From a virus: DNA of 64,000 nt. Positions 242 to 17,157 of this stretch are shown here, piece by piece. The notes beneath the pieces are model-generated. The model was not told the origin of the DNA. It made no database searches and worked only from the letters and a program-made list of their open reading frames with translations. A program made the position numbers and the translations under genes. Within the stretch, counting starts at the first letter, position 1. Every line of letters begins with the position of its first letter. The stretch lies in IMG/VR virus record IMGVR_UViG_3300046062_000024; one strand, 5' to 3'.

Positions 242-268
242 GGTGTCTCACGCCCCTCTTGGGGCTGG

Positions 269-296
269 CCCTCTCCTCGAAGCGAAAAGGAGAGGG
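269..296. repeat. 9-bp inverted repeat CCCTCTCCT/AGGAGAGGG overlapping an inverted partial copy of the array element (290-302)
   Basis: Read directly from the sequence. Confidence 0.85.
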
Positions 297-364
297 GCGT
301 GACCCGTAGTTGGCTGGCTGTACGCCTCGGTGCCCCTTTCGGGGCCGAAACCCGCCGCTGCGGG

Positions 365-796
365 CTACTTTCCGAGGCGGTCGCAGACCGCCTCGACGTT
401 CTCCTCGTGCCGGCCGTCGGCCGTGAACCCGTGGCCGGCGGCGGTGTAGTCGCTCGGTTCCTCGCCGATGGCTTCGGCGAGAATGGCGGACACGTCCGAG
501 TACGTCACGAGCATCTCGTGTGGTGCCACGTTCGTCATGCCGCGGGCCTCGTCCGCGGACCGCTGTCGGTCCTCCACCGCGCCGGACAGCGCGAGCGCCC
601 CGTTGTCCTCGTCGTTGCTGAACTCGTCGGCCGAGTCGAACAGCGTGTGGTCGAGGATGAACTCGTCGGTCACGTCGTCGCGGAACGGGTACAGCAGCGG
701 AAACGCCGCCCACGCCTGGATGTATTCCTGTCCGCTCGCCTCGCGTAGTTCGTCCAATGCGGTCGGTTTCGTCACGTCTGTGTCTATCTCGACCAT
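365..796 (-). CDS. Cassette gene, acidic hypothetical protein (143 aa)
   Basis: ATG 4 nt after the repeat; acidic halophile composition. Confidence 0.8.
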   Translation of the reverse strand: MVEIDTDVTKPTALDELREASGQEYIQAWAAFPLLYPFRDDVTDEFILDHTLFDSADEFSNDEDNGALALSGAVEDRQRSADEARGMTNVAPHEMLVTYSDVSAILAEAIGEEPSDYTAAGHGFTADGRHEENVEAVCDRLGK

Positions 797-841
797 GCAA
801 TCACGCCCCTCTCGGGGCCGTAGTGGCCTGTGGAGGCCACC

Positions 842-1576
842 CTATGGTTCTGCGTCTACGTCGTCGGGCGTTCGTTTGTCGCGCGTCTCCTCGACATCGG
901 GCATCGAATACTCGCCGAGCCGGGTTGCCTCCTCGGACAACTGCTTGGTCGGGTGGTACTCGTACTTCCGGCCGTCGCCCTCGGGCTGCTGGCGGCGGAC
1001 GACGAGTCCCTTGTTTCGGAACAGCCGCGACGAGCCGTTCTGGGTCTGTGTTTCCGACAGCGGGTTCGGCTCGTACTCGGCGAGCGCGCCCCCGCTGACC
1101 CAATCGGCGTCGTGGTCGGCATACCACTCCATGAGGATGTCGGCGATGACGTGGAGTTGGGTGTGTTCCCGGATACGCCCCGGCGGCTCGCCGGGGAACC
1201 CGACGTACTGCGGGTCAACTTTCCCGGCGAGCGGCGTGACCTGCGGCTGGAACCCGCTGCTGCCGGGACTCGAACTGGTGTCCTCGTCGGTGGTCGATGG
1301 CGCCGCCGGCTCGTCGCGCTCGGTCACGTCGGCGTCGATGGACGCGACCTCGTAGTCGTCCCACTCGACGCCGCCGAACATCTCGGCGGTAATGTCGCCG
1401 GCGTTCGGGCCGTCCGCGACGAGCGCGACCTCCGTGTCGCCGTCGCCGTTGACGACGACGGTGATGTCGGCCGCCTCGATGTCGCTCGGCGGGATGCCGA
1501 GGCCATTGAGGAGGCCCCTGGCGATGTTCGCGGCGGCGGAGCCCGCGACCTCGATGTTGGCTGTGTTGCCTGTCAT
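842..1576 (-). CDS. Cassette gene, protein with C-terminal winged-helix-like domain (244 aa)
   Basis: ATG 7 nt after the repeat; C-terminal SSRLFRNKGLVVRRQQ..GRKYEYHPT resembles a wHTH wing. Confidence 0.7.
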   Translation of the reverse strand: MTGNTANIEVAGSAAANIARGLLNGLGIPPSDIEAADITVVVNGDGDTEVALVADGPNAGDITAEMFGGVEWDDYEVASIDADVTERDEPAAPSTTDEDTSSSPGSSGFQPQVTPLAGKVDPQYVGFPGEPPGRIREHTQLHVIADILMEWYADHDADWVSGGALAEYEPNPLSETQTQNGSSRLFRNKGLVVRRQQPEGDGRKYEYHPTKQLSEEATRLGEYSMPDVEETRDKRTPDDVDAEP

Positions 1577-1662
1577 CGTGGAGTCACGCCCCTCTCGGGG
1601 CTGCCAGGAGCCGCTGTGTGCGCGTGTGTGCGGCTTCGTTGGTTGGCCGGCCCGTGGGCCGG

Positions 1663-2037
1663 CTACGCGCGCTCGCCGTCAGCGTCGGCCTCGACGCGGT
1701 CGAGAGCCACCGACAGAACGTCGGCTTCCATCACGACGTAGGCGAGACGCTTCAGTGTCTCCTCCGGGGTGTCGGCCTCGACGAGCGCCGGCCAGTCCGA
1801 GTACGTCGCCGGGTCGGTGTCCGCGTGTTCGACGATGGAGCCGTACAGTGCGCCGTCGTAGTAGTTCCGGGCGAACCAGTCGTGATAGTTGAGTTCCTCG
1901 GAACACATCTCCATGACGCCCTGCCGCCGGGAGTCGAAGTGGCCCGACTCGACCATCTCCTCGGCCTCATCGAGTAGCATCTCCACGAACGGTTCGACCG
2001 CCGCGTCGTACTCCGATTGCGTGATTGCGTCCGTCAC
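1663..2037 (-). CDS. Cassette gene, hypothetical protein (124 aa)
   Basis: GTG 6 nt after the repeat; acidic. Confidence 0.8.
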   Translation of the reverse strand: MTDAITQSEYDAAVEPFVEMLLDEAEEMVESGHFDSRRQGVMEMCSEELNYHDWFARNYYDGALYGSIVEHADTDPATYSDWPALVEADTPEETLKRLAYVVMEADVLSVALDRVEADADGERA

Positions 2038-2080
2038 AGTGTCTCACGCCCCTCTCGGGGCCGAATAGTATTGAGTCTGC

Positions 2081-2542
2081 CTACGACCGCGGCACGTCGT
2101 CCACCTCGACGGGGTACGTCGGGCCGTCCGGCAGGTCCTCGACGCGCCGGTTCTGAACGACGGTCTCGACCTCACCGTCCGGGTGGACAACGTGGTCGAA
2201 CGACACCGCTTCGGTGCCGAGACGCCGCGCTTTCCAGTGGTCGTGTGGGGGGACCGCCTCGGCGTCGCCGAACGTCCGGAAGTAGGCGTACTCGTCCACC
2301 GAGTTGACGGTCCCCCGCGTGCCGGTGTTCAGCGACCAGTATTCTTTCGCGTCGTAGAACGCCTGCCCGTTCCCGAGCGACGAGTAGCCGGGATGAACGT
2401 CGCCGCCGATGATGGCGCCCATGATGTAGCCGCCACAACCGGGACACTCCCGGGGCGCGTCGTCGGGACCGGGCTCGGGGTCGCTACACGAACACGGAGT
2501 GATACCGCCGTCGCCGTCGCCGTTGTTGGTTGCCTGTGGCAT
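2081..2542 (-). CDS. Cassette gene, Cys-containing hypothetical protein (153 aa)
   Basis: ATG 5 nt after the repeat; CSC..ECPGCGG. Confidence 0.75.
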   Translation of the reverse strand: MPQATNNGDGDGGITPCSCSDPEPGPDDAPRECPGCGGYIMGAIIGGDVHPGYSSLGNGQAFYDAKEYWSLNTGTRGTVNSVDEYAYFRTFGDAEAVPPHDHWKARRLGTEAVSFDHVVHPDGEVETVVQNRRVEDLPDGPTYPVEVDDVPRS

Positions 2543-2584
2543 CGTGGTCACGCCCCTCTCGGGGCCAATGTCCGGGGGTGGCGT

Positions 2585-2950
2585 TCACCCCTCGTGGCGG
2601 TACGTCTCCGCGATGGTGGCGCCGTGCTGGTCGATGGCGACGGTTCCGTCGAACCCGGTGACTCCGTAGCCGACGTTCTTGCTCCGGGTCCCGGTCGCGT
2701 CCTCGATGACCACCTCGTCATCCTCGACGGACAGTTCATCCCACTGGAAGGCGGTGTCGTCCAACGTCGCGCGGTCGAGGAAGATGTGGATGCCCCACAC
2801 CTCGGGCGGGTCGATGACCGACCACCACAACTCGTCGCCGTTGTCGTTCTCCGCGAGGACGGTGCCGCGCTCCTCGCCTTCGGGCGGTTCCTGCTCTTTG
2901 ACGTGGAACCCTATCTCCGTGAACGTCTCTTTGAACGTCTCGTGGTCCAT
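2585..2950 (-). CDS. Cassette gene, hypothetical protein (121 aa)
   Basis: ATG 4 nt after the repeat (MDHETFKETF); the longer track ORF reads through the repeat. Confidence 0.75.
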   Translation of the reverse strand: MDHETFKETFTEIGFHVKEQEPPEGEERGTVLAENDNGDELWWSVIDPPEVWGIHIFLDRATLDDTAFQWDELSVEDDEVVIEDATGTRSKNVGYGVTGFDGTVAIDQHGATIAETYRHEG

Positions 2951-2954
2951 CGAA

Positions 2955-3143
2955 TCACGCCCCTCTCGGGGCAGATACCGTGACATACCGCGACGAACCA
3001 TCCCGCTCGGGGCAGTAACCGTGACAGACCGCGGTATATCGCGGGGTATCGCCCCGTTTCGGGGAGATGCCGCGACATACCGCGACGAATCACCGGACAC
3101 CGACCCGTCTCGGGGAGGTACCGTGACATACCGCGACGAATCG
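2955..3143. repeat. Four degenerate ~41-52 bp tandem units, each containing the right half of the array element
   Basis: ACCGTGACATACCGCGACGAA identical at 2977-2997 and 3120-3140, near-identical at 3070-3089; TCGGGG begins each unit. Confidence 0.85.
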
Positions 3144-3719
3144 TCAGACCTCGGCGGCGTCGGCCGCCCACTGCATGAGGTCTTTCGCCTCGTTGTCGCG
3201 CTTGGCGGTGTTCTCCAGTTGCGCGAGCATCGCGTTGTACTCACGGGCGTCGAGGCCGCCGACCGGGCGGTTCGTGTGGTCGGCCTGCTCGGCTGTCCGT
3301 GTGGCCTCGGTTAGCACGTCCGTGTCCGTTCCGTCCCACCGTTTGAAGTTCTGGAGCGTCTCGACGACCGACAGGTTCGGCCGCTCGGTCACGTACCGGA
3401 CCGCTTGCTGTATCCAGTCGTGGACACCACCGTTGAACGCGACCGAGAGGTCGGCGGTGTCGGCCAGGAGGTCGAACCCGTCGAGTGCGGGGTTTGCCCG
3501 GAACTCGAACGAGTGGAACAGGTCCTCCACGGTCGTCCAGTGTTCGGACAGCACGTAGCCTTCGAGGTTGACGTAGCCCTCGGGGAACTCCTTGCGAGCG
3601 CTCACGTCGACCGTCAGCGCCAGGGTGTTCTCGACGGCGTAGTCCGCACGGCCGTCCTGCCCCCTGTCGCGGTGGGTCGCTTCTGCTTCGACCGTTCCGT
3701 TGACACGTATCGTTATCAC
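3144..3719 (-). CDS. Cassette gene, hypothetical protein (191 aa)
   Basis: GTG 6 nt after the repeat. Confidence 0.75.
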   Translation of the reverse strand: MITIRVNGTVEAEATHRDRGQDGRADYAVENTLALTVDVSARKEFPEGYVNLEGYVLSEHWTTVEDLFHSFEFRANPALDGFDLLADTADLSVAFNGGVHDWIQQAVRYVTERPNLSVVETLQNFKRWDGTDTDVLTEATRTAEQADHTNRPVGGLDAREYNAMLAQLENTAKRDNEAKDLMQWAADAAEV

Positions 3720-3761
3720 GGACAATCACGCCCCTCTCGGGGCGGCGACCGCTTACGGCGG

Positions 3762-4301
3762 TCAGTCGAGGATGCCGGCGAGTTCGCCGAGGCGGCGGAG
3801 GTCCTCGGACATATCCTCGCGGAGATGCGCTCCGTCGCGCTCGGTGGTGTGCGTGGGGAAGGCGTAGCCGTTCCAGTCGTCGCGGAGCCCGCGGACGTAG
3901 CCGTTACAGAACGCCTCGGCGCCGTCCGGCCACTCGTCGTCGTGGCTCTCGTAGGTGTCTCGGTCGCCGACCTCGTGTATCTCGATGTCCACGTTCCCGG
4001 TGAAATTCATCAGGTGAACGCCGCCGGATTTGACGTACACCCGGATGATGTCGCGGTCGCGGTCCGCCCGGGCGATGGTCGGGACGCTGTTCATCGAGCG
4101 GACGAGGAGTTCCGCCAGCGCCTCGGTCCGTGAGAGGTCAACTGGGACGGCGTGGAACACTTGGCGCTCGTCGCACTCCGTGCAGGTCCCCGACAGGCGA
4201 CGGCCAGTAACGGACACCTTCGGGTCTCCTGCCCCACACTCCGGGCACTGGTAGACGAGTCGCTCCCACGCTTCCGTCTCGGGTAGCTCCTGTTGTGGCA
4301 C
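3762..4301 (-). CDS. Cassette gene, zinc-ribbon protein (179 aa)
   Basis: GTG 5 nt after the repeat; CPECG...CTECD. Confidence 0.8.
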   Translation of the reverse strand: MPQQELPETEAWERLVYQCPECGAGDPKVSVTGRRLSGTCTECDERQVFHAVPVDLSRTEALAELLVRSMNSVPTIARADRDRDIIRVYVKSGGVHLMNFTGNVDIEIHEVGDRDTYESHDDEWPDGAEAFCNGYVRGLRDDWNGYAFPTHTTERDGAHLREDMSEDLRRLGELAGILD

Positions 4302-4349
4302 GGGAATCACGCCCCTCTCGGGGCCGAACCGGGGCGGGCGCCCCGGTCG

Positions 4350-4778
4350 TCAGTTGATGGGTTCGGCCCACGCCGCGATGTCCGCCGGAACGACCGACCC
4401 GGGGTTTTCGTAGAAACCGCCGTTCCGCATGACCCACCCCTGCATCCACACGTAGGCGAGGGCACGCGAGGCGGCGAGCGACTCCACCTCCAGCATTGCG
4501 ACCGACGAGGCGCCGGACACCATCTCTCCGGGCTCGTCGGGCTGGAGAACACAGTCGCCGTTGTCGTAGTCGCCCATCGACGGCTGGACGCTGTACGTCC
4601 CGTCGTCGGCCTGCATGACGCGGGCCGCTGTTGCCGTCCGGGGGTGGACGAACGCCTCGTGGTCCTCGTCGATGTGTCGGGCGTCGCGGCTGGCGATTTT
4701 GTCCTCGTCCCAATGCTCGACGCTGTAGAGCAGGTCCTCGTCGTCCGGGACCTGCTTGAAACTCGTAGCCATATCCAT
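4350..4778 (-). CDS. Cassette gene, hypothetical protein (142 aa)
   Basis: ATG 6 nt after the repeat. Confidence 0.8.
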   Translation of the reverse strand: MDMATSFKQVPDDEDLLYSVEHWDEDKIASRDARHIDEDHEAFVHPRTATAARVMQADDGTYSVQPSMGDYDNGDCVLQPDEPGEMVSGASSVAMLEVESLAASRALAYVWMQGWVMRNGGFYENPGSVVPADIAAWAEPIN

Positions 4779-4838
4779 CGGGCGTCACGCCCCTCTCGGG
4801 GCCGGGACCGCTTACGGCGGTCAGTCGAGGATGTCGTG

Positions 4839-4940
4839 TCAACAGTCCGGTAGCACTTCGATGTGTTCGTCACACACGGCTATCTCTGTACGCCCATCCC
4901 GCGTGACGGCAGGCGTGTCACAGAACGCACAATACGTCAT
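4839..4940 (-). CDS. Small Cys/His peptide (33 aa), ATGA-coupled to the upstream cassette gene
   Basis: MTYCAFCDTP..AVCDEH; 4-nt ATGA overlap with 4937..5329; followed in frame by HDILD* remnant. Confidence 0.5.
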   Translation of the reverse strand: MTYCAFCDTPAVTRDGRTEIAVCDEHIEVLPDC

Positions 4941-5329
4941 GTGACACCTCCGTCGCCGGGGCGCCGGATGGTGATGTCCGCAAGCAGCCAGTACGCCTCG
5001 TACCGCGAGAAGTGGCGCTCGGGGTGGTTCGGCGTGCCGGTCGCGCACACGTAGTCCGGCCCCACCTCGACATCCACGGCGACGTTCCACGATTCACCGT
5101 AGGTCATGTCGGTGTAGTCCACGTCGGAGACGCGGTGCCACTCGTCCGGCCCGGTTTCGACGGTGACGTACTCGGGCGTCCAGCGGTACCTGACGGAATC
5201 CACGGTGTGTCGGAGCGTGCGGTCGTCCAGCAGGTCGAGGTCGCTCGCGTGAACCGGGTGGAACGCATGCGGCTCGCTGGCGAACTCGCGGAGTTGCGCC
5301 GGGTCTGGATAGCGTGTTTCCTGTGGCAT
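4937..5329 (-). CDS. Cassette gene, hypothetical protein (130 aa)
   Basis: ATG 5 nt after the repeat (MPQETRY). Confidence 0.8.
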   Translation of the reverse strand: MPQETRYPDPAQLREFASEPHAFHPVHASDLDLLDDRTLRHTVDSVRYRWTPEYVTVETGPDEWHRVSDVDYTDMTYGESWNVAVDVEVGPDYVCATGTPNHPERHFSRYEAYWLLADITIRRPGDGGVT

Positions 5330-5372
5330 CGGCTTCACGCCCCTCTCGGGGCCGACAGCGGGCGTGTGCCCG

Positions 5373-6134
5373 CTACTCGTCGTCGGCCGCCTCGTCCGGC
5401 GGTTGGACGCTCCACCCGTCGGGGAGGAGACAGACGGCGAGGGTGGCGACCTCGTAGGATTTGAGGTTCGCCTGTATCTCGCCGGGGAGGTCGAGGTCGT
5501 CGTTCTCGACCAGCATCCAGTACAGGTCGCTCACGTCGTCTTTGAACAGCGACGTGAACCCCGTGTCGCGGGCGAGACACACCATCGGGCCGTAGCCCGT
5601 GTCGGGTTCCAGGTCAACCACCTCGCGGTTCGTGATGGACCCGATGGTCGGCCCGGCCTCGCGTTTGCGCTCGGCGCGCTCCGCTTGCGTGCGCGGCATC
5701 CGGTAGCCAGCGTTCTTCCGGTGGTTCTGGATGGCGCCGCAGGCGTTACACACCTGTTGGCGCTCGCCCGGGAGGGTGGCGACCGTCTGTTTGAGTCGGT
5801 CGTACCCGCAGCGGGCGCACTCGCCTTCGACTATCTCGGTGTACGAGCCCTGCGTGCCCTCGACGGGGCCGGACCGCATGTTGGACTCCAACAGCACCGG
5901 GAGGTCCTCGCCGGTGTCCATCCGGGCGATGCGGGGGTCGTCGCCGCCCGAGTCCTCGGGGAGCCGGGAGCGGACGCCGGGGCGGTCACACGGGTGGCCG
6001 TCCACGTCCGTCGTCTCCTGGCCGAGATAGTCCGGGCCGACGGTGCCGGATACGTCGAGGTTGTAGCCGCTCGGTGCGCCGCGTTCGTTGGCCCCCATCC
6101 GCTTGAGGGCACTGTCAGGCTCCTCGCCTGTCAT
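5373..6134 (-). CDS. Cassette gene, zinc-ribbon protein (253 aa)
   Basis: ATG 5 nt after the repeat; CARCG...CNACG. Confidence 0.8.
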   Translation of the reverse strand: MTGEEPDSALKRMGANERGAPSGYNLDVSGTVGPDYLGQETTDVDGHPCDRPGVRSRLPEDSGGDDPRIARMDTGEDLPVLLESNMRSGPVEGTQGSYTEIVEGECARCGYDRLKQTVATLPGERQQVCNACGAIQNHRKNAGYRMPRTQAERAERKREAGPTIGSITNREVVDLEPDTGYGPMVCLARDTGFTSLFKDDVSDLYWMLVENDDLDLPGEIQANLKSYEVATLAVCLLPDGWSVQPPDEAADDE

Positions 6135-6177
6135 CGCGGTCACGCCCCTCTCGGGGCACTGGTGTGGGTGGTGGGGG

Positions 6178-6474
6178 CTACAGGTCCGCGGGTGGAAAGC
6201 GCATCACCTCGACGGTGGCGAGTAATTCGTCGTCGCCCACCTCGATGTTCGGGTCGAACCGGCCGGAGCGGAGACACACGAACGCCCACTCGGCGCGCTC
6301 CGGTCTGTCCTCGACGTGGACCCAGAAGCCGAGACTGGTCACGTCCGAAAGCACCACGTCGGTCTGGTGTCCCATCACCCCGGCTTTCCACTCGCCGGAG
6401 ACGCGGTCGATGTAATCCATGTTGCGGAACGCCTGTTCCATCAATTCTCGCTGTCGTTCGGTCGGGTGTGGCAC
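6178..6474 (-). CDS. Cassette gene, hypothetical protein (98 aa)
   Basis: GTG 5 nt after the repeat (MPHPTERQ). Confidence 0.75.
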   Translation of the reverse strand: MPHPTERQRELMEQAFRNMDYIDRVSGEWKAGVMGHQTDVVLSDVTSLGFWVHVEDRPERAEWAFVCLRSGRFDPNIEVGDDELLATVEVMRFPPADL

Positions 6475-6524
6475 GGGAATCACGCCCCTCTCGGGGCCGG
6501 GAGCCGGCGGTCGCCCGCCGGTGG

Positions 6525-7469
6525 TTAGCGGAACACGCAGTACCCGATGTGGTCGTCGTCGCACGTGTGGAACACGGCGCCGTCGATGTGGTCGTCGTCG
6601 TGGGCCGCGTTCAACGCCGGGTGGTCGTCGTCGCCTTCTTCGATGAGGCCTTCGTCCTGTAACTCGAACGGGTCGATGGACCGCTGGTAGCGCAGTTCAT
6701 CGCTCCCGTAGAGACAGGACTCGTAATCGACCCACTCGCAGCGTTGACACCGGAACTCTAACTCGTGGGGGAGCCAGCCGCCCATCGCGCTGGTGTACGC
6801 CCGCGGGCCGGTGTAGCCGCCGCGAACGTCCGCGCCCTGATGGACTTGGACGAACCCGTACCCGGCGTAGGGACCGCCGAGGACGACGCCCTGAAGCACC
6901 TGCGAGAGTGAGTGACACTCCCCGTTGTAGGTGTTGAAGGTGAACCCCGCCTCGGTGCCCTGGATGTCGTTCTGGACCGCGAGAACGTCCGTGATGAACC
7001 CGTCGGGGACACCCCACTCGCGGAGGTCGAACTCCGTGAGCGCGTTGTCGAACAACAGGTCGCGGAACGCCTCGCTGGACGAGAGCCACGGCTCGCGCTC
7101 CTGGCTGTCGGTGTGGCCGAAGGCGTAGAGTGCGGCTTCCAGCGCGACCGCCGGCCGGTCGCGGCCGAAGGCCCGCTCCATCCAGTGGTAGACGTTGTGG
7201 GTAACGTAGCCGTTCCCCACGTCCCACGCCGGGCGTTCCCACGGGGGATTCTCCTGGTTTTCCTCCCAGTGCCGACCGTAGGCACTGCCGGAATCCAAGA
7301 GGTGCCTGCCCGTGTTCTCGGTCAGTTGGGACCGAATCACGTCCACGGCGTCGTCCGTGGCCATCGGGATAGGCTTCTCGCCGGGGGCGTTGTACGCCGC
7401 CTCGGCGAACGCCCGGACGAGTCGCTGGAGTTCGTCGGTACTGCCGTCTGTGGTCTGGTTGCCTGACAT
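6525..7469 (-). CDS. Cassette gene, conserved-looking viral hypothetical protein (314 aa)
   Basis: ATG 5 nt after the repeat; motifs TGRHLLDSGSAYGRHW, NTYNGE, HQGADVRGGY that I recall from uncharacterised phage proteins (unverified); C-terminal CQRC. Confidence 0.8.
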   Translation of the reverse strand: MSGNQTTDGSTDELQRLVRAFAEAAYNAPGEKPIPMATDDAVDVIRSQLTENTGRHLLDSGSAYGRHWEENQENPPWERPAWDVGNGYVTHNVYHWMERAFGRDRPAVALEAALYAFGHTDSQEREPWLSSSEAFRDLLFDNALTEFDLREWGVPDGFITDVLAVQNDIQGTEAGFTFNTYNGECHSLSQVLQGVVLGGPYAGYGFVQVHQGADVRGGYTGPRAYTSAMGGWLPHELEFRCQRCEWVDYESCLYGSDELRYQRSIDPFELQDEGLIEEGDDDHPALNAAHDDDHIDGAVFHTCDDDHIGYCVFR

Positions 7470-7521
7470 GGCAGTCACGCCCCTCTCGGGGCTGCTACCC
7501 GCCGATGAGGCGGGTGGTGTG

Positions 7522-7935: not shown

Positions 7936-7991
7936 AGCGGTATCATGCCCCTCTCGGGACGAAACCGGGGAGTTGCCCCCCACCGACCGGG

Positions 7992-9244: not shown

Positions 9245-9287
9245 CGGTGGTCACGCCCCTCTCGGGGCGACGGTGTGGGGCTGTCGG

Positions 9288-9497: not shown

Positions 9498-9542
9498 CGG
9501 TGGTCACGCCCCTCTCGGGGCCGAACGAGGCGGGCCGGGGCG

Positions 9543-10019
9543 TTAGCCCCACTCCTCGCTGTGTAGTTGTTGCTCGCAGCGGAGGCAGGTGACGCTCTCA
9601 CCGCCCGATATGTAGTGGTGGGCGCGGTACGTGTAGACGCCGCGCTCGCCGCCACACTCGGGACACTCCTCGGGGACGCCCGAGAGGTCGGCCTCGAAAA
9701 GTGGGAACGCCACCGTGTAGCGACCCACGTGGTCGTCGCTCCGTTTCGCGCCGTGCTGTGGGTCGCCGCGGGTGACTGAGAAGTCCCGTACCTCGCGCGT
9801 CTCGACCGTCCACTCGCTGTCGTGGACGTGTTTCAGGACGTGGAGGTCGCCGGTCCCCGGCGTGCCCGGGATGTCGTGGTTTGCGACCGTCTCCAGCGCC
9901 GCCTCGATGCGGCTGGTCGAGGGACCGCGGCGTTGGCGGCCTCGGTCCCGTCGCGCTCGCTGGTGGTCGGTTCGGTCGAGTCGTGCCCGTCGTCGGGCTT
10001 CGGGGTAGGGGTCAGTCAT
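9543..10019 (-). CDS. Cassette gene, Arg-rich N-terminus and C-terminal zinc ribbon (158 aa)
   Basis: ATG 7 nt after a variant repeat; CPECG...CLRCE; the N-terminus may be frameshifted. Confidence 0.7.
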   Translation of the reverse strand: MTDPYPEARRRARLDRTDHQRARRDRGRQRRGPSTSRIEAALETVANHDIPGTPGTGDLHVLKHVHDSEWTVETREVRDFSVTRGDPQHGAKRSDDHVGRYTVAFPLFEADLSGVPEECPECGGERGVYTYRAHHYISGGESVTCLRCEQQLHSEEWG

Positions 10020-10063
10020 ACCGGGGTCTCGCCCCTCTCGGGGCCGAACGCGGGATGGGTGGG

Positions 10064-10300
10064 TTAGTAGTACCAGCCCATCTTGTCGCATATCTCGCGG
10101 GCGAGTTCCACTTCGCTCTCGTTGCGGGCGTCCACGTACTCGGTGCCGGCCAGCGCCACGATGCCCGGTTTGAGTACCTGCCGGAACACCTCGCGCTGGA
10201 GATAGTTGTGTTCGCTGTTGATGCCGGCTTGGAACTCGGCTATCTCGATACCGCTGTTCACGCTGTCGCCGATTGCGTCGGCGAGGTCGGCTGCGTCCAT
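10064..10300 (-). CDS. Cassette gene, hypothetical protein (78 aa)
   Basis: ATG 6 nt after the repeat. Confidence 0.75.
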   Translation of the reverse strand: MDAADLADAIGDSVNSGIEIAEFQAGINSEHNYLQREVFRQVLKPGIVALAGTEYVDARNESEVELAREICDKMGWYY

Positions 10301-10348
10301 CGGTGGTCACGCCCCTCTCGGGGCCGGCGGGGGCAGTCCCCGCGCTGG

Positions 10349-10591
10349 TTACTCGTGGACGACGACCCGGAGGCCGGACTCGACCATCTCGACGGCGGGG
10401 TCGGATGTATCCATCTCGTCCGGTACGTCGTACTCCTGGTCGGTCACGCGGACGGCCTCGACCTCGACGGCGAACGGGTCGCCCGGCCACTCGACTCCAT
10501 TGACGACGGCTTCGGCCGCCGTTTTGTGGTCGTCGGCCTCGGCCGCGCCGAGGACTTCGCCGCTTTCGACGTAGATGATGTACGTATCCAT
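10349..10591 (-). CDS. Cassette gene, hypothetical protein (80 aa)
   Basis: ATG 5 nt after a variant repeat. Confidence 0.75.
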   Translation of the reverse strand: MDTYIIYVESGEVLGAAEADDHKTAAEAVVNGVEWPGDPFAVEVEAVRVTDQEYDVPDEMDTSDPAVEMVESGLRVVVHE

Positions 10592-10636
10592 CGGTGCCAC
10601 GCCCCTCTCGGGGCCAAACCGGCTTGAAGCCGGTGG

Positions 10637-11167
10637 TTAGTCGTCCAGTCCCGCCACTACGTCGTCACGCGGTATCCACGACGTGGCCCCCGCTTCACCG
10701 TAGGGGGCGAAGTCCTCGGCCAGCATGATGCGGACCTCGGTGTCGTCGTCGTCCAACAGGTACGCCGCGGCGTGGCGACCCATATCGTTCGGGTCGCGTA
10801 CCTCCACGACCGGGTGGGGATGGCCGTGGGGGTAGTCATGCACCAGCAGGGTCGTGTTCAGGCGGTCCCCGCAGACATGGCAGGACGCGCCGGGGTAATC
10901 CCACTCGTCGTTCGCGGCGACGACCCCAACACCGAAGCCGTCGGGGTCGTGCCCGCCCGGCGGGAACTCCGTCAATGGGTACATCTCGCCGTCGCCCGCA
11001 GACTCGACGGACACATCCGGCGCGCACGATAGGCAGTACGCCGCGCCGTCGTAGATGTAGCCGGCCGCGCCGCCGGGCCACACGCCGCCAGGGAGTTCCC
11101 GGGCAGTCGGGGCGAGGTCGTCGTCGTCGGTCACGGACTCCGCACTCAGGTTTCCTATGACGCCCAT
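10637..11167 (-). CDS. Cassette gene, Cys-containing hypothetical protein (176 aa)
   Basis: ATG 7 nt after the repeat; CLSC...CHVCG. Confidence 0.8.
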   Translation of the reverse strand: MGVIGNLSAESVTDDDDLAPTARELPGGVWPGGAAGYIYDGAAYCLSCAPDVSVESAGDGEMYPLTEFPPGGHDPDGFGVGVVAANDEWDYPGASCHVCGDRLNTTLLVHDYPHGHPHPVVEVRDPNDMGRHAAAYLLDDDDTEVRIMLAEDFAPYGEAGATSWIPRDDVVAGLDD

Positions 11168-11209
11168 AGTCGAGTCACGCCCCTCTCGGGGCAGGACGCC
11201 GAGGGACCG

Positions 11210-11428
11210 TTATACACGGTCCGGGTCGCGGAGCAACACGTTCCGCTTCAGCGTGTGTCCGCACTCGGCGCATTTGATGTCGCCTTCTACCCACCCGCAG
11301 GGGTCCCGGCGTGTCGCGTGCGTCTCGGTCGGTGGGGGACACTCCCCACAGACGGGACACTCCGGCGGCACGGGCGGGCCGGGTGGGCGGTTCTCCCGTC
11401 TCGCGCCGCGTCGTCGTTCGCTGTGCAT
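11210..11428 (-). CDS. Cassette gene, Arg-rich N-terminus plus CPxCG zinc finger (72 aa)
   Basis: ATG 8 nt after the repeat; CPVCG...CAECG. Confidence 0.65.
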   Translation of the reverse strand: MHSERRRGARRENRPPGPPVPPECPVCGECPPPTETHATRRDPCGWVEGDIKCAECGHTLKRNVLLRDPDRV

Positions 11429-11490
11429 CGTCGGAGTCACGCCCCTCTCGGGGCTGACGGGAAGGCTGGATTGGGGCGCCGCCCCGGTGG

Positions 11491-11877
11491 TTACTGTCCG
11501 TACAACTCGAAGTCGAGGGTGTCGGCCTCGTATGGGGCGACGGCGGCCATGTAGCCGTGCGCGAAGTCCCGCGCCCGCGTCCGGTCGCCGGCGGGCGGCG
11601 CGGCGGCCTCGGGGCTGTCTTCCGCCAGCGGGCGGACGACCCCCATCAGGTCCGTCATGCCGTGTTCGGGGTACGCCAGGATGAACCAGTTGTCGTCGTG
11701 GGTTCGCCCGAGCAGGACTTGGTGGCCGTTGGCGAACAGGTAGGCCTCCTCGCCGTAGGCTTCGCCCTCGGCGGGGTCGAACCGGGTCCAGCCCGGTGGG
11801 AGTCGCTCGTCCGGCATACCCAGGGCCTCCTCGTTGTCGATGCCGTCGCGTAGGTCGGTTCCGTCGTACCCTGTCAT
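11491..11877 (-). CDS. Cassette gene, hypothetical protein (128 aa)
   Basis: ATG 7 nt after the repeat (MTGYDGTDL). Confidence 0.8.
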   Translation of the reverse strand: MTGYDGTDLRDGIDNEEALGMPDERLPPGWTRFDPAEGEAYGEEAYLFANGHQVLLGRTHDDNWFILAYPEHGMTDLMGVVRPLAEDSPEAAAPPAGDRTRARDFAHGYMAAVAPYEADTLDFELYGQ

Positions 11878-11923
11878 GGGTCGGTCACGCCCCTCTCGGG
11901 GCGATAAATCGGCGGCGGGGCGC

Positions 11924-12310
11924 CTATTCGTCGGACACCGGCGGGTACACCAGGGTGTTCGTCGCGCGCGGCGGCGTGACGAACTCGTCGTTCGACGGCT
12001 CAACCACGACGACGAGAACCGCGTCGTCGGGACTGATTACCTCGTTCTCCCCGTTGTCGGTGCCGAGCCACGAGGGGTGGTCGTCCATTATCTCGACGCC
12101 GCCGTCGTCGCAGATTTGGTACATCCGCGGTACCGCCTCGTAGGCGGGGTAGCCGTCCGCTTGGCCGATACGGTTAACCACGGTACCGTCCACGTCCACG
12201 GACCGGGAGACTGTCCCGACTATCAGGAGGAGCGGACCCCTACAGTCGCCGCGCTTACGGCCCGCTCGGTCCATCAAGTCGGCCAGTCCGGTTACTGTCG
12301 TGTCCGTCAT
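11924..12310 (-). CDS. Cassette gene, hypothetical protein (128 aa)
   Basis: ATG 3 nt after a variant repeat. Confidence 0.75.
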   Translation of the reverse strand: MTDTTVTGLADLMDRAGRKRGDCRGPLLLIVGTVSRSVDVDGTVVNRIGQADGYPAYEAVPRMYQICDDGGVEIMDDHPSWLGTDNGENEVISPDDAVLVVVVEPSNDEFVTPPRATNTLVYPPVSDE

Positions 12311-12352
12311 GGGTCACGTCCCCTCTCGGGGCAGGGCGACCGCTTACGGCGG

Positions 12353-12829
12353 TCAGTCGATTGGCGAGAGGGGCCGCAGGCTTTCCTCGCCGGCGTAGGG
12401 GCCGACATAGACGACTCGGTGGCCGTACTCGCCCGCGCCGGTGGTGAGTCGCTGCATGGCCGCGACCATCGGGTGGTCGTCGCGGAGGCCGTCGATGGCG
12501 TACAGCCGCAGGTCGTTGTTCGGCCGCCATTGGACGGCGGCGTGCAGCGGCTCGCACTCGACCCACTCGTCGGTGTGCGGCGGCTCGATGCAGACCCGCG
12601 TTGTCTTGTTACAGCGGGAGGTCGAGGGCGAAACCTCCCACCGGCGGCCGTCGGCCGTCTCGGCGTACACGCCGGAGACGTGGCGGTCGTCGGCGTCGGG
12701 GTCGTAGCGGTTCCGGCCGGCGGCGAGTTCGCGCTCCTCGCTGGTCCAGTCGCCGTCGTCGCGCGCGGGAACGAGCGCGCCCTCGTTCGTGGACTGGACG
12801 CCGGTCGCGTCTGCTGTTGCTCGGGTCAC
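12353..12829 (-). CDS. Cassette gene, hypothetical protein (158 aa)
   Basis: GTG 6 nt after the repeat. Confidence 0.75.
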   Translation of the reverse strand: MTRATADATGVQSTNEGALVPARDDGDWTSEERELAAGRNRYDPDADDRHVSGVYAETADGRRWEVSPSTSRCNKTTRVCIEPPHTDEWVECEPLHAAVQWRPNNDLRLYAIDGLRDDHPMVAAMQRLTTGAGEYGHRVVYVGPYAGEESLRPLSPID

Positions 12830-12873
12830 AGTTAGTCACGCCCCTCTCGGGGCCGGGCGACCGCTTACGGCGG

Positions 12874-13416
12874 TCAGTCGTCGTTCGTGGCGTCGTCCGG
12901 CAGGTCGCGCTCGGACACGTTCTGGACCTCGCTCGGTTCCACGCCGTAGCCGGAGGCGTGCGACCAGTATCCCTCAACGTCGCTCTCACCGACCTCGAAC
13001 GTCTCATGTCGGACGTTCCGATAGTGGGTGAGGTCGGCGACGTAGTAGGTCGCGCGGTCGAGGAACGGCGGGGCGGCGGGCAGGTGATGCTCGTCACCGA
13101 GGGACCGGAGTATGGCCTTCACGTTGTCGGTGAAGTCCGTCCACGGGTCGCTCGGGTCCGTCCACACGTCCGCGGGGCGGAACCTGTACCGTTCGACGAG
13201 GTGCTTCGGTTCCGACCACGCGGCCGGGGGCGTCACCTCCACGACGCGCCAGTCGGTTCCCGTCCACTTGATGTATTCGCCCCCGTGTTCGATGGGGTTC
13301 ACGTCCCAGTAGTTCACCCACCGCTCCGGCGGGTCGAACGCCGGACTGTCGGTGGGCGCGTGCTTGGGCCGCTCCTGATACCGGGTTTCGAGGGTTGTGT
13401 CGAGTTGGCCGGTCAT
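12874..13416 (-). CDS. Cassette gene, hypothetical protein (180 aa)
   Basis: ATG 7 nt after the repeat. Confidence 0.8.
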   Translation of the reverse strand: MTGQLDTTLETRYQERPKHAPTDSPAFDPPERWVNYWDVNPIEHGGEYIKWTGTDWRVVEVTPPAAWSEPKHLVERYRFRPADVWTDPSDPWTDFTDNVKAILRSLGDEHHLPAAPPFLDRATYYVADLTHYRNVRHETFEVGESDVEGYWSHASGYGVEPSEVQNVSERDLPDDATNDD

Positions 13417-13466
13417 CGGTCGGTCACGCCCCTCTCGGGGCCGGCGCGGGCGCTTCGCCCGCGCGG

Positions 13467-13793
13467 TCAGTCGTCGTCGCGGAGGCCGAGTTCGCTGAGG
13501 CGCTCCCGCAACGCCTGATGTTGGTCTACGGTCATGCCGGCGTCGAACTGACTCATGTCGTCGTTCGAGAGGTACACCACCCAGGACAGGATGGATTGGA
13601 CGATTGGGTCGTTCGGGCCGGCCACGTCGCTCCAGTAGTCGGCGGTGGCGATGAGGAGCCGGCGGTTCGTCGGCGGGTGGCGTCGGGCCATAGCCGCAGC
13701 CACGTCCGCGAACTTCTCGCGGACCTCGGCCACGTCGTCGCCGGCGAGTTGCCCTATCGGTTCCGCGAGGTCGATGGTGGGGTTGGCGCTCAT
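13467..13793 (-). CDS. Cassette gene, hypothetical protein (108 aa)
   Basis: ATG 8 nt after the repeat (MSANPT). Confidence 0.75.
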   Translation of the reverse strand: MSANPTIDLAEPIGQLAGDDVAEVREKFADVAAAMARRHPPTNRRLLIATADYWSDVAGPNDPIVQSILSWVVYLSNDDMSQFDAGMTVDQHQALRERLSELGLRDDD

Positions 13794-13842
13794 GGCCGGA
13801 GTCACGCCCCTCTCGGGGCCGGAGCCGGCAGCCGGCGGCTGG

Positions 13843-14016
13843 CTACCGGGTCGTGTTGCCGTGCGGCGGGTTGCGGTGCATGACCGGCTCCGGGTTTCCG
13901 GGGGCCAGCCGCGCCGCCTGTAGGTCCTCGCACCGCGGGCACAGTTCGGGGCCGGGTGGTCGGGGGTCGTTACACCGTCTGCACGCGAGGGAGTCCTCGT
14001 AGTCGTTGGCGCTCAT
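13843..14016 (-). CDS. Cassette gene, small zinc-finger protein (57 aa)
   Basis: ATG 8 nt after the repeat (MSANDY); CRRC...CPRC. Confidence 0.65.
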   Translation of the reverse strand: MSANDYEDSLACRRCNDPRPPGPELCPRCEDLQAARLAPGNPEPVMHRNPPHGNTTR

Positions 14017-14065
14017 GGCCGGAGTCACGCCCCTCTCGGGGCCGAGACGCGGGAGTCGAGACGGG

Positions 14066-14458
14066 TTAGACCGTGACGGTCATGCCGTCCGTGAACTCCC
14101 GCTCGCCGCTCGGCGTCTCCAGGTACCACTCGTAATCCTCCTGGTACACCTCGTACCCGTCGGGCAGGTAGCGGTTGATGCGGTCCTTTGTCGTTTGGGT
14201 CCGGTAGCCGTGGCTGTCAAGCCGGCGCGTGCGTCCCTCCGTAACGACCACCGGCGACTGGTGGTAGAAGTGGACGAGTGCGCCGTCGTACCGGACTTTC
14301 ACGTCGCGGTACGCGCCTTTGTCGGTCGTGCGGGCACACGTACAGCCCTTAACCGCGGGGCCGTTGTTACCGGGCTGGTGGTAGCCGGACCGCTCTTGTA
14401 CGGTTCCCTCGTCGGTCGCAGTCCCGAAACTCGGGACGGGTAGACTGTCGGCGCTCAT
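14066..14458 (-). CDS. Cassette gene, phage-type hypothetical protein (130 aa)
   Basis: ATG 8 nt after the repeat (MSADSL); YHQSPVV..GYRTQTTKDRIN motif recalled from phage hypotheticals (unverified). Confidence 0.8.
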   Translation of the reverse strand: MSADSLPVPSFGTATDEGTVQERSGYHQPGNNGPAVKGCTCARTTDKGAYRDVKVRYDGALVHFYHQSPVVVTEGRTRRLDSHGYRTQTTKDRINRYLPDGYEVYQEDYEWYLETPSGEREFTDGMTVTV

Positions 14459-14508
14459 GGCCGGAGTCACGCCCCTCTCGGGGCCGGCGGGGGCGGCCCC
14501 CGCGCTGG

Positions 14509-14769
14509 TCAGGGCAGGTACTTCAGGGGGTCCTCGTCGGACTCCCGCATGACGCCCTTCATGTGTTCGGCTTCCAGTTCCTCGACGGACTTGAACCGCG
14601 ACACCGACACGTCGCCGGCTTTGTCGCCCCACTCGCAGGTGGGGCAGCCGTCGCCCGACTGGAACTTCTCCGCCGGGTCGTCCGGCTGGTCGTCCCACTC
14701 GGCCACGTCGTGTCGGAGCGCGTACAGCGAGTACGGTTCGCCGCACTTCGCGCAGGGTATGTCGTTCAT
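14509..14769 (-). CDS. First (promoter-proximal) cassette gene, zinc-finger protein (86 aa)
   Basis: ATG 7 nt after the repeat; CAKCGEP...GCPTC. Confidence 0.8.
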   Translation of the reverse strand: MNDIPCAKCGEPYSLYALRHDVAEWDDQPDDPAEKFQSGDGCPTCEWGDKAGDVSVSRFKSVEELEAEHMKGVMRESDEDPLKYLP

Positions 14770-15949
14770 CGGCGGGTCACGCCCCTCTCGGGGCCGAAAG
14801 CCGCGATGCGAGTGTGGGTGTGTTCGCTAGTTGCCCACGGCGGCCCTCTCGGGCCGGTGCGCGTGGCTATGGTGGCTCTTGTGTCCCCGTGCAGCGGGCG
14901 TCTGTATCCACGGTGCTGTTTACTCTCGGGTACGTCTATCTGGTGATGGCTGGTGCCTTCTATGGCCGGTGGCGGCGGCGGCTTGTCGCCGTCGTGCCTG
15001 CCGGGTCGGGCTATGCCGACCGAGGCCGCGGCCGTCATACGCGCGCTCGCGTCGGGTCGCGTGCCATAGCCGTGAGATTCCTCGCGCCCCGGCGCTATGC
15101 CGGGGTCGCGTGCCCTAATAGCCCCTTCCAGGGACTCCGAAAACCACTCGTCGGCTGGTAGGCCGTGCGGCCGAACTGACCGGCGACCGCGCCGGGTCCG
15201 GGGTACTCCCGCGCCCCACCGCGCCCGCGCCGCTCGCGGGTGCGTGTGTTGGTCGGACTCGCGGGGATACTACTGGCCCCCACCGCCCTGTCGGCTCGGG
15301 AGTCTCACCCTTAATCGGGGCGCGGGGCCGGGCCGCCGTATCCGGCGGGGCGTCGTATTGTCGTACCCTGACGCCTCGGGTCGCGGGGCCGTTCCCCGGG
15401 GAGTCTCCCGGTTATCAATTGAGTGGGTTTTGGTTTCCCGTACCCACCGGGAGACTCGCACGCCCGCCGTTCGGGGCCTTAGACCGCCCCCGTTGCAGGG
15501 GACAGGATTGGACCCGTCCGGCGACGCACACACCGACCGCGCGACTTCTCGCCCGCGGCCCCGTCGCCCGCACACCTATCCGCGGCCACCGCCGCGTGTG
15601 CTATGGGCCGGAGCGTCTCGCGTGGGTGGGTAATCACCCCGGGCGAGCGTAGCCGGTGCCATGACGCGCGGGGGGTCGCCCCCGCGCCGTATGCTATTTC
15701 CGGGTTTACAGTTAAGTCTCCCCGTCGCAACCGGGGGTAGGCGGTGGTGCCGGAACCGTAGGGGCCTCACACGCCCCATTCCCGCGGCCCTACGGGGCCA
15801 CGGAGGGGGGCGCTTGAACGGCCGCCGCCGTCCGACGCCACCGGCCAACCGCAGGCCGGCACCGCGCCGGGTGGGCCGTGCCGGGATACCCCCGCGCCGG
15901 GAACCCGCCCCACGTCAGGGGGGATACCCCCATGTTGGGCCGCGGGGAG

Positions 15950-15957
15950 TATAAAAG
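15950..15957 (+). promoter_or_regulatory. Archaeal TATA box (TATAAAAG)
   Basis: Best TATA consensus in a very GC-rich intergenic region; purine-rich GGGGAG directly upstream; predicted TSS about 15979-15980. Confidence 0.6.
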
Positions 15958-15978
15958 TTTCGGTTCGCAAATTCCGGC

Positions 15979-16170
15979 GGTTCACGCCCCTCAGACACCC
16001 GAAAACGGCGCTTTGCGTCGTGGAAACATGATTCCACGACACGGCCCGCGTGCGGGGCGGTATCGGCCGATTCTGGCGGATATAGCCGCGATAACTCGTG
16101 ATTCCATCATGGCATACCCCCGAACAGCACCGCGCCACGACGGACGACCTAGCCGGTTCAGGCCGCGTGT
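15979..16170 (+). ncRNA. Candidate structured small RNA or long leader with a 5' end antisense to the array element
   Basis: TCACGCCCCTC at 15982-15992, about 30 nt after the TATA box; perfect 9-bp hairpin GTCGTGGAA/TTCCACGAC at 16017-16040 and further short stems; 3' end unknown. Confidence 0.35.
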
Positions 16171-16275
16171 GCCCCGATGATAGATAAACCCGGACGGAAC
16201 AGGCCGCCACCGGCCGAATCAGGACACCCCCCGGCGGGGGGACTAAGGCCACGGAGGCCCACGCTATTATCCATC

Positions 16276-17157
16276 ATGGCCGTCGAGGACTCCGACGACA
16301 TCAACCGATTCGCACAAGCCGTGAGCGGGCGCGAAGTCACGAACGACGACACGCTCGACTCCTACATACGCTGGATTCAGCGGTATGAGGAGTGGCTCAC
16401 CGCCGAGTCCCCCACGGAAACCACCGTCAGAGAGTTCGACCGATACCTCGCAAGCAACGACGAGTTCCTCTGGAACATGGGGCATCCCCTGCGGAACGAC
16501 GAGGACCGCCCCGGCTACGCATACCGAACCCGGGTCAAGGCGCTATCAGCCGTCAAGCTCTGGATGCGGTTTCACTACAACGTCGAGATACCGACAGAGG
16601 TCCAGAACATGGCACTCGGCGAGGCGCCGGACTACGACCCCGACTGGCTCTCGGAGAGCGACTGTGAACGAATCATCACCACCGCCACCGACGCCTGCGA
16701 CAACGAGGAGTGCCGGGCGCTCCTCCGGCTGTCCTACGACGCCATCCTCCGAGCCGCCGAAGCCGCGAGCATCGAACGAGACGACATCTCGCTGGACCGC
16801 GGGACGATATACGTCAGAGCCAAGAAGGGGTCGATGAACGCCGAGATTGGCCTCGACGACACCACCGTCTCCCGGCTCCGAGAACACACCGCCGCCTTCC
16901 CGGGACGTGACCGGCTGTTCCGAAACGCATACGGCCGGGCCTGGAAACCGAACGCGCTCGCCCAGCACTTCCGACGATGCCACCACGAGGTCGGCATCCA
17001 CAGTTTCTCCCGACACAGCCCCATCATCCACCGGCTCAACGCCGGCGAACCCTTCGGCACAGTCATGCGGCGGGCGAGGCACTCGAACAGCACGACGACG
17101 ATGCGGTATGCCCGCCTCGTCGGGGCGGAGATACCGCCGTGGGTCGAGGACGGGTGA
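16276..17157 (+). CDS. Tyrosine recombinase/integrase (XerC-like, 293 aa)
   Basis: Catalytic set R (ILRAAEA), K (AKKG), H-x-x-x-R (IHSFSRH), H and Y (RHSNSTTTMRY); N-terminal core-binding-like domain. Confidence 0.9.
   Translation: MAVEDSDDINRFAQAVSGREVTNDDTLDSYIRWIQRYEEWLTAESPTETTVREFDRYLASNDEFLWNMGHPLRNDEDRPGYAYRTRVKALSAVKLWMRFHYNVEIPTEVQNMALGEAPDYDPDWLSESDCERIITTATDACDNEECRALLRLSYDAILRAAEAASIERDDISLDRGTIYVRAKKGSMNAEIGLDDTTVSRLREHTAAFPGRDRLFRNAYGRAWKPNALAQHFRRCHHEVGIHSFSRHSPIIHRLNAGEPFGTVMRRARHSNSTTTMRYARLVGAEIPPWVEDG

Follow-up and report, generated by a model that had tools for sequence, protein, structure and literature searches.

Does an array of small genes that share one invariant repeat and lie beside a tyrosine recombinase represent an integron-like platform for gene capture, or is the repeat first of all a signal for gene expression? 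The question is raised by a 64,000-nucleotide (nt) stretch of viral DNA (IMG/VR record IMGVR_UViG_3300046062_000024; the whole stretch is referred to here as the window), in which an 18-nt element precedes the start codons of 32 small genes. The window is part of an 81.8-kb Joint Genome Institute (JGI) contig from a halite metagenome, and its source is an uncultured haloarchaeal virus, probably a tailed one. A preliminary description, made from the sequence alone, had interpreted the array as an undescribed platform for gene capture or shuffling, driven either by the recombinase or by homologous recombination between the repeats. Our analysis favors the view, to which we assign a probability of about 0.6, that the element would serve as a start-associated, RNA-level translation module in an operon whose genes mostly lack promoters. 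The element forms an RNA hairpin where a ribosome would bind, and the covariation and wobble changes on its sense strand mark it as first of all an expression signal.

A hairpin element ahead of the array genes

A search of the whole window for GCCCCGAGAGGGGCGTGA, with up to two mismatches allowed and the chance level taken from shuffled sequences, identified 31 matches (27 exact and 4 with one or two substitutions), all on the minus strand between positions 248 and 14794, where 0.00 were expected. A 32nd copy, GCCCCGAGAGGGGACGTGA (12314-12332, minus strand), carries one A inserted between the stem and the tail and lies 3 nt before a 128-amino-acid (aa) open reading frame (ORF; 11924-12310). 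The 32 copies (18 nt, reading GCCCC-GAGA-GGGGC-GUGA as RNA; 248-14794, minus strand) have their low coordinates at 248, 801, 1584, 2044, 2548, 2955, 3726, 4307, 4785, 5335, 6140, 6480, 7475, 7943, 8261, 8614, 8804, 9251, 9504, 10027, 10307, 10597, 11175, 11437, 11885, 12314, 12836, 13424, 13802, 14025, 14467, and 14777. As had been noted in the preliminary description, all 32 are co-oriented, and no copy was found at up to two mismatches in the remaining 49 kb (14.8-64 kb). An ATG or GTG start codon follows each of the 32 copies after 3 to 8 nt, and 17 to 36 nt separate the upstream stop codon from the next element in most units. Information content is 2 bits over the 18 positions and drops abruptly on both sides; the element is the only sequence common to all junctions.

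These copies punctuate a co-directional array of at least 33 small genes (47 to 314 aa; 1-14794, minus strand) that continues off the left end of the window, 32 of them with the element and one coupled by ATGA. Gene families are named here after their window members, in the window order c01 to c31. The exception is a 31-aa CxxC ORF (4845-4940, minus strand), which lacks the element and whose ATG overlaps the c22 stop codon (ATGA). The small ORFs had also been called unrelated, and no paralogues were found when 31 array proteins were compared among themselves; no significant Pfam family was detected in the 20 larger array proteins scanned. A second, variable hairpin (-5 kcal/mol or lower) follows the stop codon in 17 of the 26 short junctions, about two thirds, and the rest lack the GC hairpin that had been ascribed to each unit. 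In a set of 185,579 species genomes, the 18-mer had only single chance matches in bacteria and none in haloarchaea. The 14-nt hairpin core gave mostly unrelated single matches in IMG/VR; loci with two copies of this core were actinophage-like terminators.

No megablast match was obtained for the 1- to 20-kb or 30- to 50-kb regions of the window in phage and plasmid collections, tblastn of the integrase against the phage collection was likewise without a match, and a primase-based search for relatives in IMG/VR returned none. Four related arrays (contigs L190, L192, L181, and L177) were reached through integrase homologues and cluster look-ups. The cassette proteins of L190, an 82-kb contig, are 60 to 94% identical to those of the window (mostly 85 to 94%), and those of L181 are 56 to 92% identical. 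The exact 18-mer also stands ahead of other genes in metagenome fragments L034, L040, L043, and L001. All relatives have the same layout, composed of a stop codon, often a hairpin, the element, 3 to 8 nt, and a start codon.

The element folds into a GC stem of 5 bp that is capped by a GNRA loop and followed by a GUGA tail, and the hairpin alone has a predicted energy of -11.7 kcal/mol. In a covariation set of 11 distinct variants from five sources, 96.4% of cells pair, and compensatory double changes are present at three of the five stem pairs (C-G to G-C; C-G to U·G to U-A; and G-C to U-A). This level of pairing and compensation was matched by 1 of 500 shuffles, and slid pairing registers yielded no compensatory pairs. 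L190 and L192 contain the series C-G, U·G, and U-A at pair 2, and L043 has U-A at pair 1. The L181 copies vary yet keep the structure (GCCCGGAGACGGGC, with C-G changed to G-C; GCCCUGAGAGGGGC, with U·G; and GCCCCGAGAGGGGU, with G·U), and their loops read GAAA, GAGAU, GAAAU, or GAGAC; across the variants, loops remain GNRA or GNRA plus one nucleotide. The L177 lineage has its own version of the element, with a 4-bp stem, and one variant copy in the window, GUCCCGAGAGGGGCAUGA (7943-7960, minus strand), has a U·G wobble at stem pair 2 and an AUGA tail. All eight single-sided stem changes are C-to-U changes that give rise to G·U or U·G wobbles in the gene-strand RNA, and the variants of the four relatives include no A·C or C·A stem pair, that is, no G-to-A change tolerable only on the opposite strand. 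Because the single-sided changes are all gene-strand wobbles, they argue for an mRNA structure and speak against an antisense RNA, a cruciform, or a site read in duplex DNA. Judged from this pattern of substitutions, the element is an mRNA hairpin kept on the sense strand.

Ordinary TTAAG-type promoters had been reported outside the array, and many non-array genes do have TTAAG/TTTTAG-type boxes ~27 nt before the start codon, as leaderless mRNAs of haloarchaea would be expected to have. In the interval from -40 to -18, 3 of the 32 array units have an A/T-rich hexamer, versus 9 of the 25 other genes, so that the claimed lack of TATA-like boxes between array genes is correct for 29 units, whereas the hexamers in the junctions before c07, c15, and c28 lie at a possible TATA-box position. 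These observations bear on the possibility that the element is a DNA-level signal, such as a promoter-proximal or operator site for a virus-specific transcription factor or polymerase, and that the genes are transcribed separately with very short leaders. An invariant 18-bp repeat ahead of genes recalls phage-specific promoters, halovirus promoter cassettes are known (HF2 and HGTV-1), and A/T-rich boxes lie directly upstream at the three junctions just named. However, the great majority of units are devoid of TATA-like sequence, the stem changes (G·U, U·G, and compensatory) suit a sense-strand RNA and not duplex DNA, and a scan of the larger ORFs revealed neither an RNA polymerase gene nor one for TFB or TBP. 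Unlike the element, the motifs of HGTV-1 and HF2 are AT-rich and lie ~25 to 100 nt upstream. We regard a DNA-level role as improbable.

The position of the element points to translation initiation. Its GUGA tail corresponds to the 3' half of GGAGGUGA, the Shine-Dalgarno (SD) sequence of haloarchaea, and SD motifs ahead of distal genes in Haloferax operons have a spacing optimum of 3 to 7 nt for GGAGGUGA (PMC3986360), with which the element-to-start spacing of 3 to 8 nt agrees. At the final array junction of L190, GGAGGTGA-acg-ATG replaces the element, and a non-array gene of the window has GGGAGTGA-cccatc-ATG. Tail variants in the relatives (AUGA, GUGG, and GUGA preceded by one or two extra bases) leave the spacing to the start codon unchanged. 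When whole junctions are folded to minimum free energy, the hairpin is present, and the tail, spacer, and AUG are mostly unpaired. Pairing energies were calculated with an anti-SD derived from the SD consensus in PMC3986360, which may not be the actual 16S rRNA 3' end of the host. With this consensus anti-SD, GUGA alone gives -3.5 to -5.3 kcal/mol, and the opened 3' arm plus the tail gives -10.0 kcal/mol, compared with -14.7 kcal/mol for GGAGGUGA. Since the hairpin (-11.7 kcal/mol) is approximately isoenergetic with this opened-arm pairing, the element could also gate translation.

Exchange of single-gene units among relatives

Gene order is not syntenic among arrays that carry the same element; this comparison had been proposed in the preliminary description, and its outcome is the one that favors the shuffling part of that description. 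The order in L190 is c02 c03 c04 c01 c05 c05' c16 (c08) n01 c11 c12 c13 c14 c07 c18 c19 c20 c21 c22 c26 c23 c24 n02 c27 n03 c28 n04 c29 c30 c31, followed by five more units; that in L192 is c19 c21 n10 c24 c25 c27 c28 n11 c29 n12 c30 c31 and onward; and that in L181 is c03 c02 n n c09' c14 n c12 n c19 c21 c06 c27 c23 c25 c22 and onward. Relative to the window, single units in L190, L192, and L181 are translocated, inserted, deleted, or replaced, with constant orientation, and the arrays of L190 and L192 extend past c31 by ~5 further units.

Logan contigs from the sister sample X3, placed on the window, have the same joints as JGI contig L190 (also L191). In these joints, the leader upstream of the array runs to element 2 without c01, a copy resembling element 5 precedes c01, c26 and then c23 come after c22, and c08 comes after c16. 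In sample X4, one unit has been deleted between elements 6 and 7. Assembly chimeras are unlikely, since the 18-nt repeat is shorter than the assembler word length and two assemblers agree, possibly on reads from the same sample.

The breakpoints of these rearrangements lie at the junctions. In most rearranged junctions, the 3' hairpin goes with the upstream gene (c19, c21, c14, c27, c26, and c28), and the spacer and first codons go with the downstream gene. For c18 in L190, the AUGA tail stays with c18, but the upstream gene is another one and the 5' arm after it is GCCCC; with the tail retained and the 5'-arm variant lost, this crossover must lie inside the element. When the window is compared with L190, homology of c01 extends only from codon 3 to two bases beyond the stop codon, the hairpin behind c01 differs in L190, and the c01 hairpin of the window resembles that of c10. 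The 20 nt after the element are common to three adjacent unrelated genes, and a block, GACUGA-ccgccguaagcgguc, ends c05, c06, c22, and c24 in the window as well as several genes in the relatives. Such a mosaic of small junction modules suggests homologous or short-homology recombination and gene conversion around a shared repeat; a fixed-point site-specific exchange would not leave it. The comparison supports a view of the array as single-gene units that can be exchanged, with breakpoints that fall within the element or next to it.

Several junctions have further remnants. In a geneless segment (2973-3143, minus strand), a junction module made up of gttcgtcgcggtatgtcacggtatct and a degenerating hairpin is present as three decayed copies in tandem, which look like scars of unit loss or of slippage at junctions, and orphan hairpins are present at several junctions. 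The c30-c31 junction (266-364, minus strand) is a ~120-nt non-coding block that is kept in L190, L192, and L181. Within it are an orphan, tail-less hairpin with a GAAA loop (332-345) and, in inverted orientation, part of the element (UCACGCCCCUCU), for which the next element is a potential pairing partner.

Promoter, leader, and RNA-level explanations

A candidate transcription factor B recognition element (BRE; CGAAA) with a TATA box, CTTTTATA, faces the array at 15950-15962 (minus strand); the pair is kept in L190 as CGAAAC-CTTTAT and may act as a promoter. Between it and the first unit lies a non-coding stretch of ~1.1 kb (14795-15930, minus strand) that matches L190:2757-3985. This leader is 85.6% identical to its L190 counterpart over 1247 nt, whereas the adjacent integrases are just 42% identical. 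Mismatches between the two leaders show no codon periodicity, indels are 1 to 2 nt long, and many changes are compensatory, features from which we read the stretch as a structured leader RNA. A ~140-nt core is also found in L181 (8925-9065), with 42 predicted pairs, 9 of which have double changes among the three viruses. Rfam scans (gathering thresholds for the whole window; E-value mode for 14 to 16.4 kb) and tRNA scans gave no match. On this comparative evidence, the stretch is probably a large structured leader RNA; a role as an origin or packaging site is a less likely alternative.

Two other assignments in this region were rejected. A 178-aa ORF (15097-15633, plus strand), also called in L190, has no codon periodicity and differs from L190 by non-triplet indels of 1 to 2 nt; it is almost certainly spurious. 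An antisense transcript on the plus strand, running from the TATA box at 15950 and starting with TCACGCCCCTC, is not favored either, as the BRE is on the array side of the TATA box and the complementary 11-mer is not kept in L190, which reads GAGGGGTCTCA. From the arrangement of promoter, leader, and genes, we infer that the array would be transcribed as an operon.

In the explanation that we favor, ~32 to 37 small accessory genes, mostly promoterless, would be carried on one or a few long messages from the promoter ~1.1 kb upstream. Each hairpin would fold locally, so that GUGA, spacer, and AUG would be single stranded irrespective of the neighboring sequence, and every unit would thus bring along a portable ribosome entry site of its own. 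A further role of the hairpin may be to stabilize or mark transcript ends, and the near-equal energies of the hairpin and of anti-SD pairing could make the element a translation switch. In addition, homologous or short-homology recombination would cross over at the element, both inside one genome and between coinfecting relatives. Such recombination would delete, insert, or relocate single-gene units, with their orientation fixed.

Several observations weigh against this explanation. Kramer et al. found SD strength to be without effect in Haloferax 5' untranslated regions (PMC3986360), so a 4-nt SD core may add little. At the three hexamer-bearing junctions, the A/T-rich box lies just upstream of the element. 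The recombination was read from assembled contigs and not from reads or circles. Finally, the exact 18-mer is kept in L001, where the shared proteins are only ~40% identical, and it accounts for 27 of 32 copies in the window and 26 of 34 in L190, against 2 of 17 in L181. Its retention in L001 and homogeneity in the window and L190, but not in L181, imply that more than a structural constraint is needed. Concerted evolution by recombination (frequent gene conversion), a sequence-reading factor, or both could be behind the homogeneity.

A sequence-reading factor is central to another RNA-level explanation, in which the hairpin is chiefly a recognition and cleavage site for a dedicated RNA-binding protein or endonuclease of the virus or host; cleavage of the long precursor would yield monocistronic mRNAs with hairpin-protected ends, and ribosome recruitment would be secondary. 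That the sequence, and not the structure alone, is invariant across viruses whose shared proteins are ~40% identical is in keeping with this idea, as is the homogeneous version found in each lineage (such as the 4-bp stem of L177). The second hairpin after the stop codon could shield the 3' end, and the long structured leader hints at control at the RNA level. However, no candidate nuclease or RNA-binding protein was recognized among the window proteins scanned, many sequence variants occur in L181 provided that pairing is preserved, and both the 3- to 8-nt distance to the start codon and the canonical SD that substitutes for the element at the array end are explained more simply by translation. 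We consider processing by such a factor rather unlikely. An operon-wide RNA system is a more speculative and still less likely extension, in which a ~20-kb precursor with the 1.1-kb leader would be bound at each hairpin by a sequence-specific factor that either cuts the RNA there or uses the hairpin/anti-SD switch to gate translation. One master control would then act on ~35 interchangeable accessory genes drawn from a pool reshuffled among halite viruses.

The recombinase, known repeat systems, and other genes

The tyrosine recombinase (16177-17157, plus strand; Pfam Phage_integrase, 2.3e-16) is divergent from the array, as had been described, and its true start is probably ~28 codons further in. 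Among NCBIfam models, it scored 39.1 bits against integron integrase model TIGR02249 (cutoff, 265) and 23 bits against NF011946 (cutoff, 435); its best match was XerA, at 71.5 bits, which is also below the cutoff (220). It is 42% identical to the recombinase of L190 (382-1281) and 44% identical to that of L181. The combination of 42% recombinase identity with the same 18-mer, cassettes that are mostly 85 to 94% identical, and a leader that is 85.6% identical indicates that the integrase module was exchanged and the repeat left unchanged. Closer homologues of the window integrase are found in L183 (87% identity) and L177 (60%). A 38% identical homologue, P0012 (in the region L184:8136-10056), is located directly between haloarchaeal housekeeping genes (RNase P subunits, proteasome, and SBDS) and an integrated element that encodes a resolvase as well as a D5-type primase. 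This integrated element of L184 is also present in L185 and L186, with a different left flank or none, so that comparison could define its att site.

An integron-like mechanism, in which this recombinase or another site-specific enzyme excises and inserts cassettes within the hairpin element, would account for the topology of the locus. As in integrons, single-gene units of the same orientation, apparently mostly promoterless, are arranged behind one candidate promoter with hairpin repeats at their boundaries and a divergent recombinase nearby; cassette content and order vary between relatives unit by unit, with orientation preserved and boundaries at the repeat. The recombinase adjoins the array in the window, L181, L190, and L177. 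However, this adjacency is part of a synteny of the whole backbone (subtilase, prenyl synthase, and ParA), and the recombinase is far under the IntI and XerA model cutoffs. It diverges strongly from the L190 and L181 enzymes despite an identical element and ~90% identical cassettes in L190, and P0012 flanks host genes in the manner of an ordinary integrase. In contrast to attC sites, which are imperfect palindromes of variable sequence on the 3' side of each integron ORF, the element is an invariant repeat 5' of each ORF at the ribosome-binding position, with perfect 5-bp arms, a 4-nt GNRA loop, no extrahelical bases, and no RYYYAAC/GTTRRRY core, the last of which had been recognized in the preliminary description. 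Neither a precise single crossover position nor a recombinase tied to its site was found, as breakpoints vary (as for c01 and for the 5' and 3' modules common to unrelated genes) and the recombinase was swapped without a change in the repeat.

On balance, site-specific exchange of the integron type is very improbable, and the neighboring integrase appears to be an ordinary integration enzyme, unneeded for shuffling. Of the two routes proposed initially, the recombinase-driven one is not supported, in view of the scores against the IntI models, the divergence from L190, the location of P0012 at a provirus border, and the imprecise breakpoints. Homologous recombination between repeats fits the imprecise breakpoints and shared junction modules, as it does the phage cassettes discussed below. 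The notion of a gene-shuffling platform survives in the form of exchangeable single-gene units, without the integron mechanism and without the epithet "undescribed."

The element is also present apart from any recombinase gene noticed so far. In L001, an IMG/VR contig of 4.9 kb, the region 1147-3210 contains c30 and c31 as a pair, accompanied by one exact element and by a variant, GGGGCAGTGA. The pair directly follows genes that resemble a structural (head) module, a label given by appearance, and that have ordinary GGAGGTGA-type SDs. This locus indicates that the element is not restricted to integrase-linked arrays.

The element is nearer to phage "regulatory cassettes" than to a bacterial integron, and its closest analogues are the promoter-early stem-loop (PeSL) cassettes of T4-type phages and the start-associated sequences (SAS) of cluster K mycobacteriophages. 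PeSLs are the best functional counterpart for shuffling, and SAS and extended SAS (ESAS) are the best for position and likely role. PeSLs are DNA motifs of ~70 bp that combine a promoter and a terminator; mini-circles have been demonstrated, and recombination between the motifs is homologous, not integrase driven (Arbiol et al. 2010, PMC2839356; Comeau et al. 2014, PMC4122927). In both systems, short conserved expression signals flank ORFans in a hyperplastic region, and indels, replacements, and relocations between close relatives stop at the motif. The element differs from PeSLs in its length of 18 nt, ribosome-binding position, RNA-hairpin constraint, and archaeal host. It has no promoter part, neither the element nor most junctions contain promoter-like sequence, and no U run follows the stem-loop, in contrast to the composite of promoter and terminator in PeSLs. 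The present array is known from contigs alone, whereas mini-circles have been shown for PeSLs.

SAS are 13-bp sequences (GGGATAGGAGCCC) found at 10 to 19 scattered genes, and no RNA-pairing support was seen by the authors for ESAS (Pope et al. 2011, PMC3203893). Like the element, SAS are short, asymmetric repeats in one orientation, 3 to 7 bp ahead of the start codons of many non-structural genes; they occupy the ribosome-binding site with an SD core, are often preceded by an inverted-repeat module, and are absent from the host genome. The element shares the asymmetry, the single orientation, and the few-nucleotide distance to starts, is likewise often preceded by an inverted repeat, and has a putative SD core in its GUGA tail; the 18-mer occurs in no haloarchaeal genome of the 185,579-species set. 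SAS are not hairpins and have no known link to recombination, whereas the element is a covarying hairpin, precedes every unit of one contiguous array, and marks breakpoints.

Virus-specific repeats ahead of many small genes on one side of the genome are also known from haloviruses. The class I/II intergenic repeats of HF2 are repeated promoter motifs of a haloarchaeal tailed virus (PMC8707807), and a motif of HGTV-1 composed of a TATA box and an inverted repeat was suggested to drive expression and shuffling (Sencilo et al. 2013, as presented in PMC3950731). Read directly, the HGTV-1 motif consists of CTTTTTATA, then CTCCTCGTGGCACGAGGAG, then TATATAAA; it is AT-rich, lies 25 to 100 nt upstream of leaderless genes, and was rejected as a relative of the element because it is a promoter-type repeat. 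In contrast, the element is GC-stemmed, has no TATA box, and abuts the start codon.

The element is thus a further form of mobile regulatory cassette or start-associated sequence, neither an integron nor categorically new. It would be the first start-associated repeat of an archaeal virus shown by covariation to act as an RNA structure and not as a promoter, and the same repeat is also tied to single-gene shuffling in natural sister populations. It joins two phenomena that were described separately in bacteriophages, namely, start-associated sequences and PeSL-mediated modular shuffling. Internal initiation in haloarchaea is poorly understood, and the element may offer a compact, portable translation initiation module for polycistronic expression in these organisms. 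The locus also advises caution, as a repeat-punctuated array beside an integrase need not mean an integron.

The rest of the window codes for a primase-helicase, ParA, a subtilase, and an intein-containing polyprenyl synthase, and a virion structural protein of the window has a distant likeness to one of HGTV-1. The polyprenyl synthase intein (gene at 25863-28085, minus strand) has a LAGLIDADG domain; in L182 (4671-7466), an intein is found in the subtilase instead, and the prenyl synthases of L177 and L181 are intein free. Within the array, the largest cassette protein, c19 (6525-7469, minus strand; 314 aa), has homologues of 28 to 32% identity in low-GC bacteriophage contigs L175 and L176, which are without the element. 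These homologues indicate that at least one cassette gene is common to viruses of different host domains.

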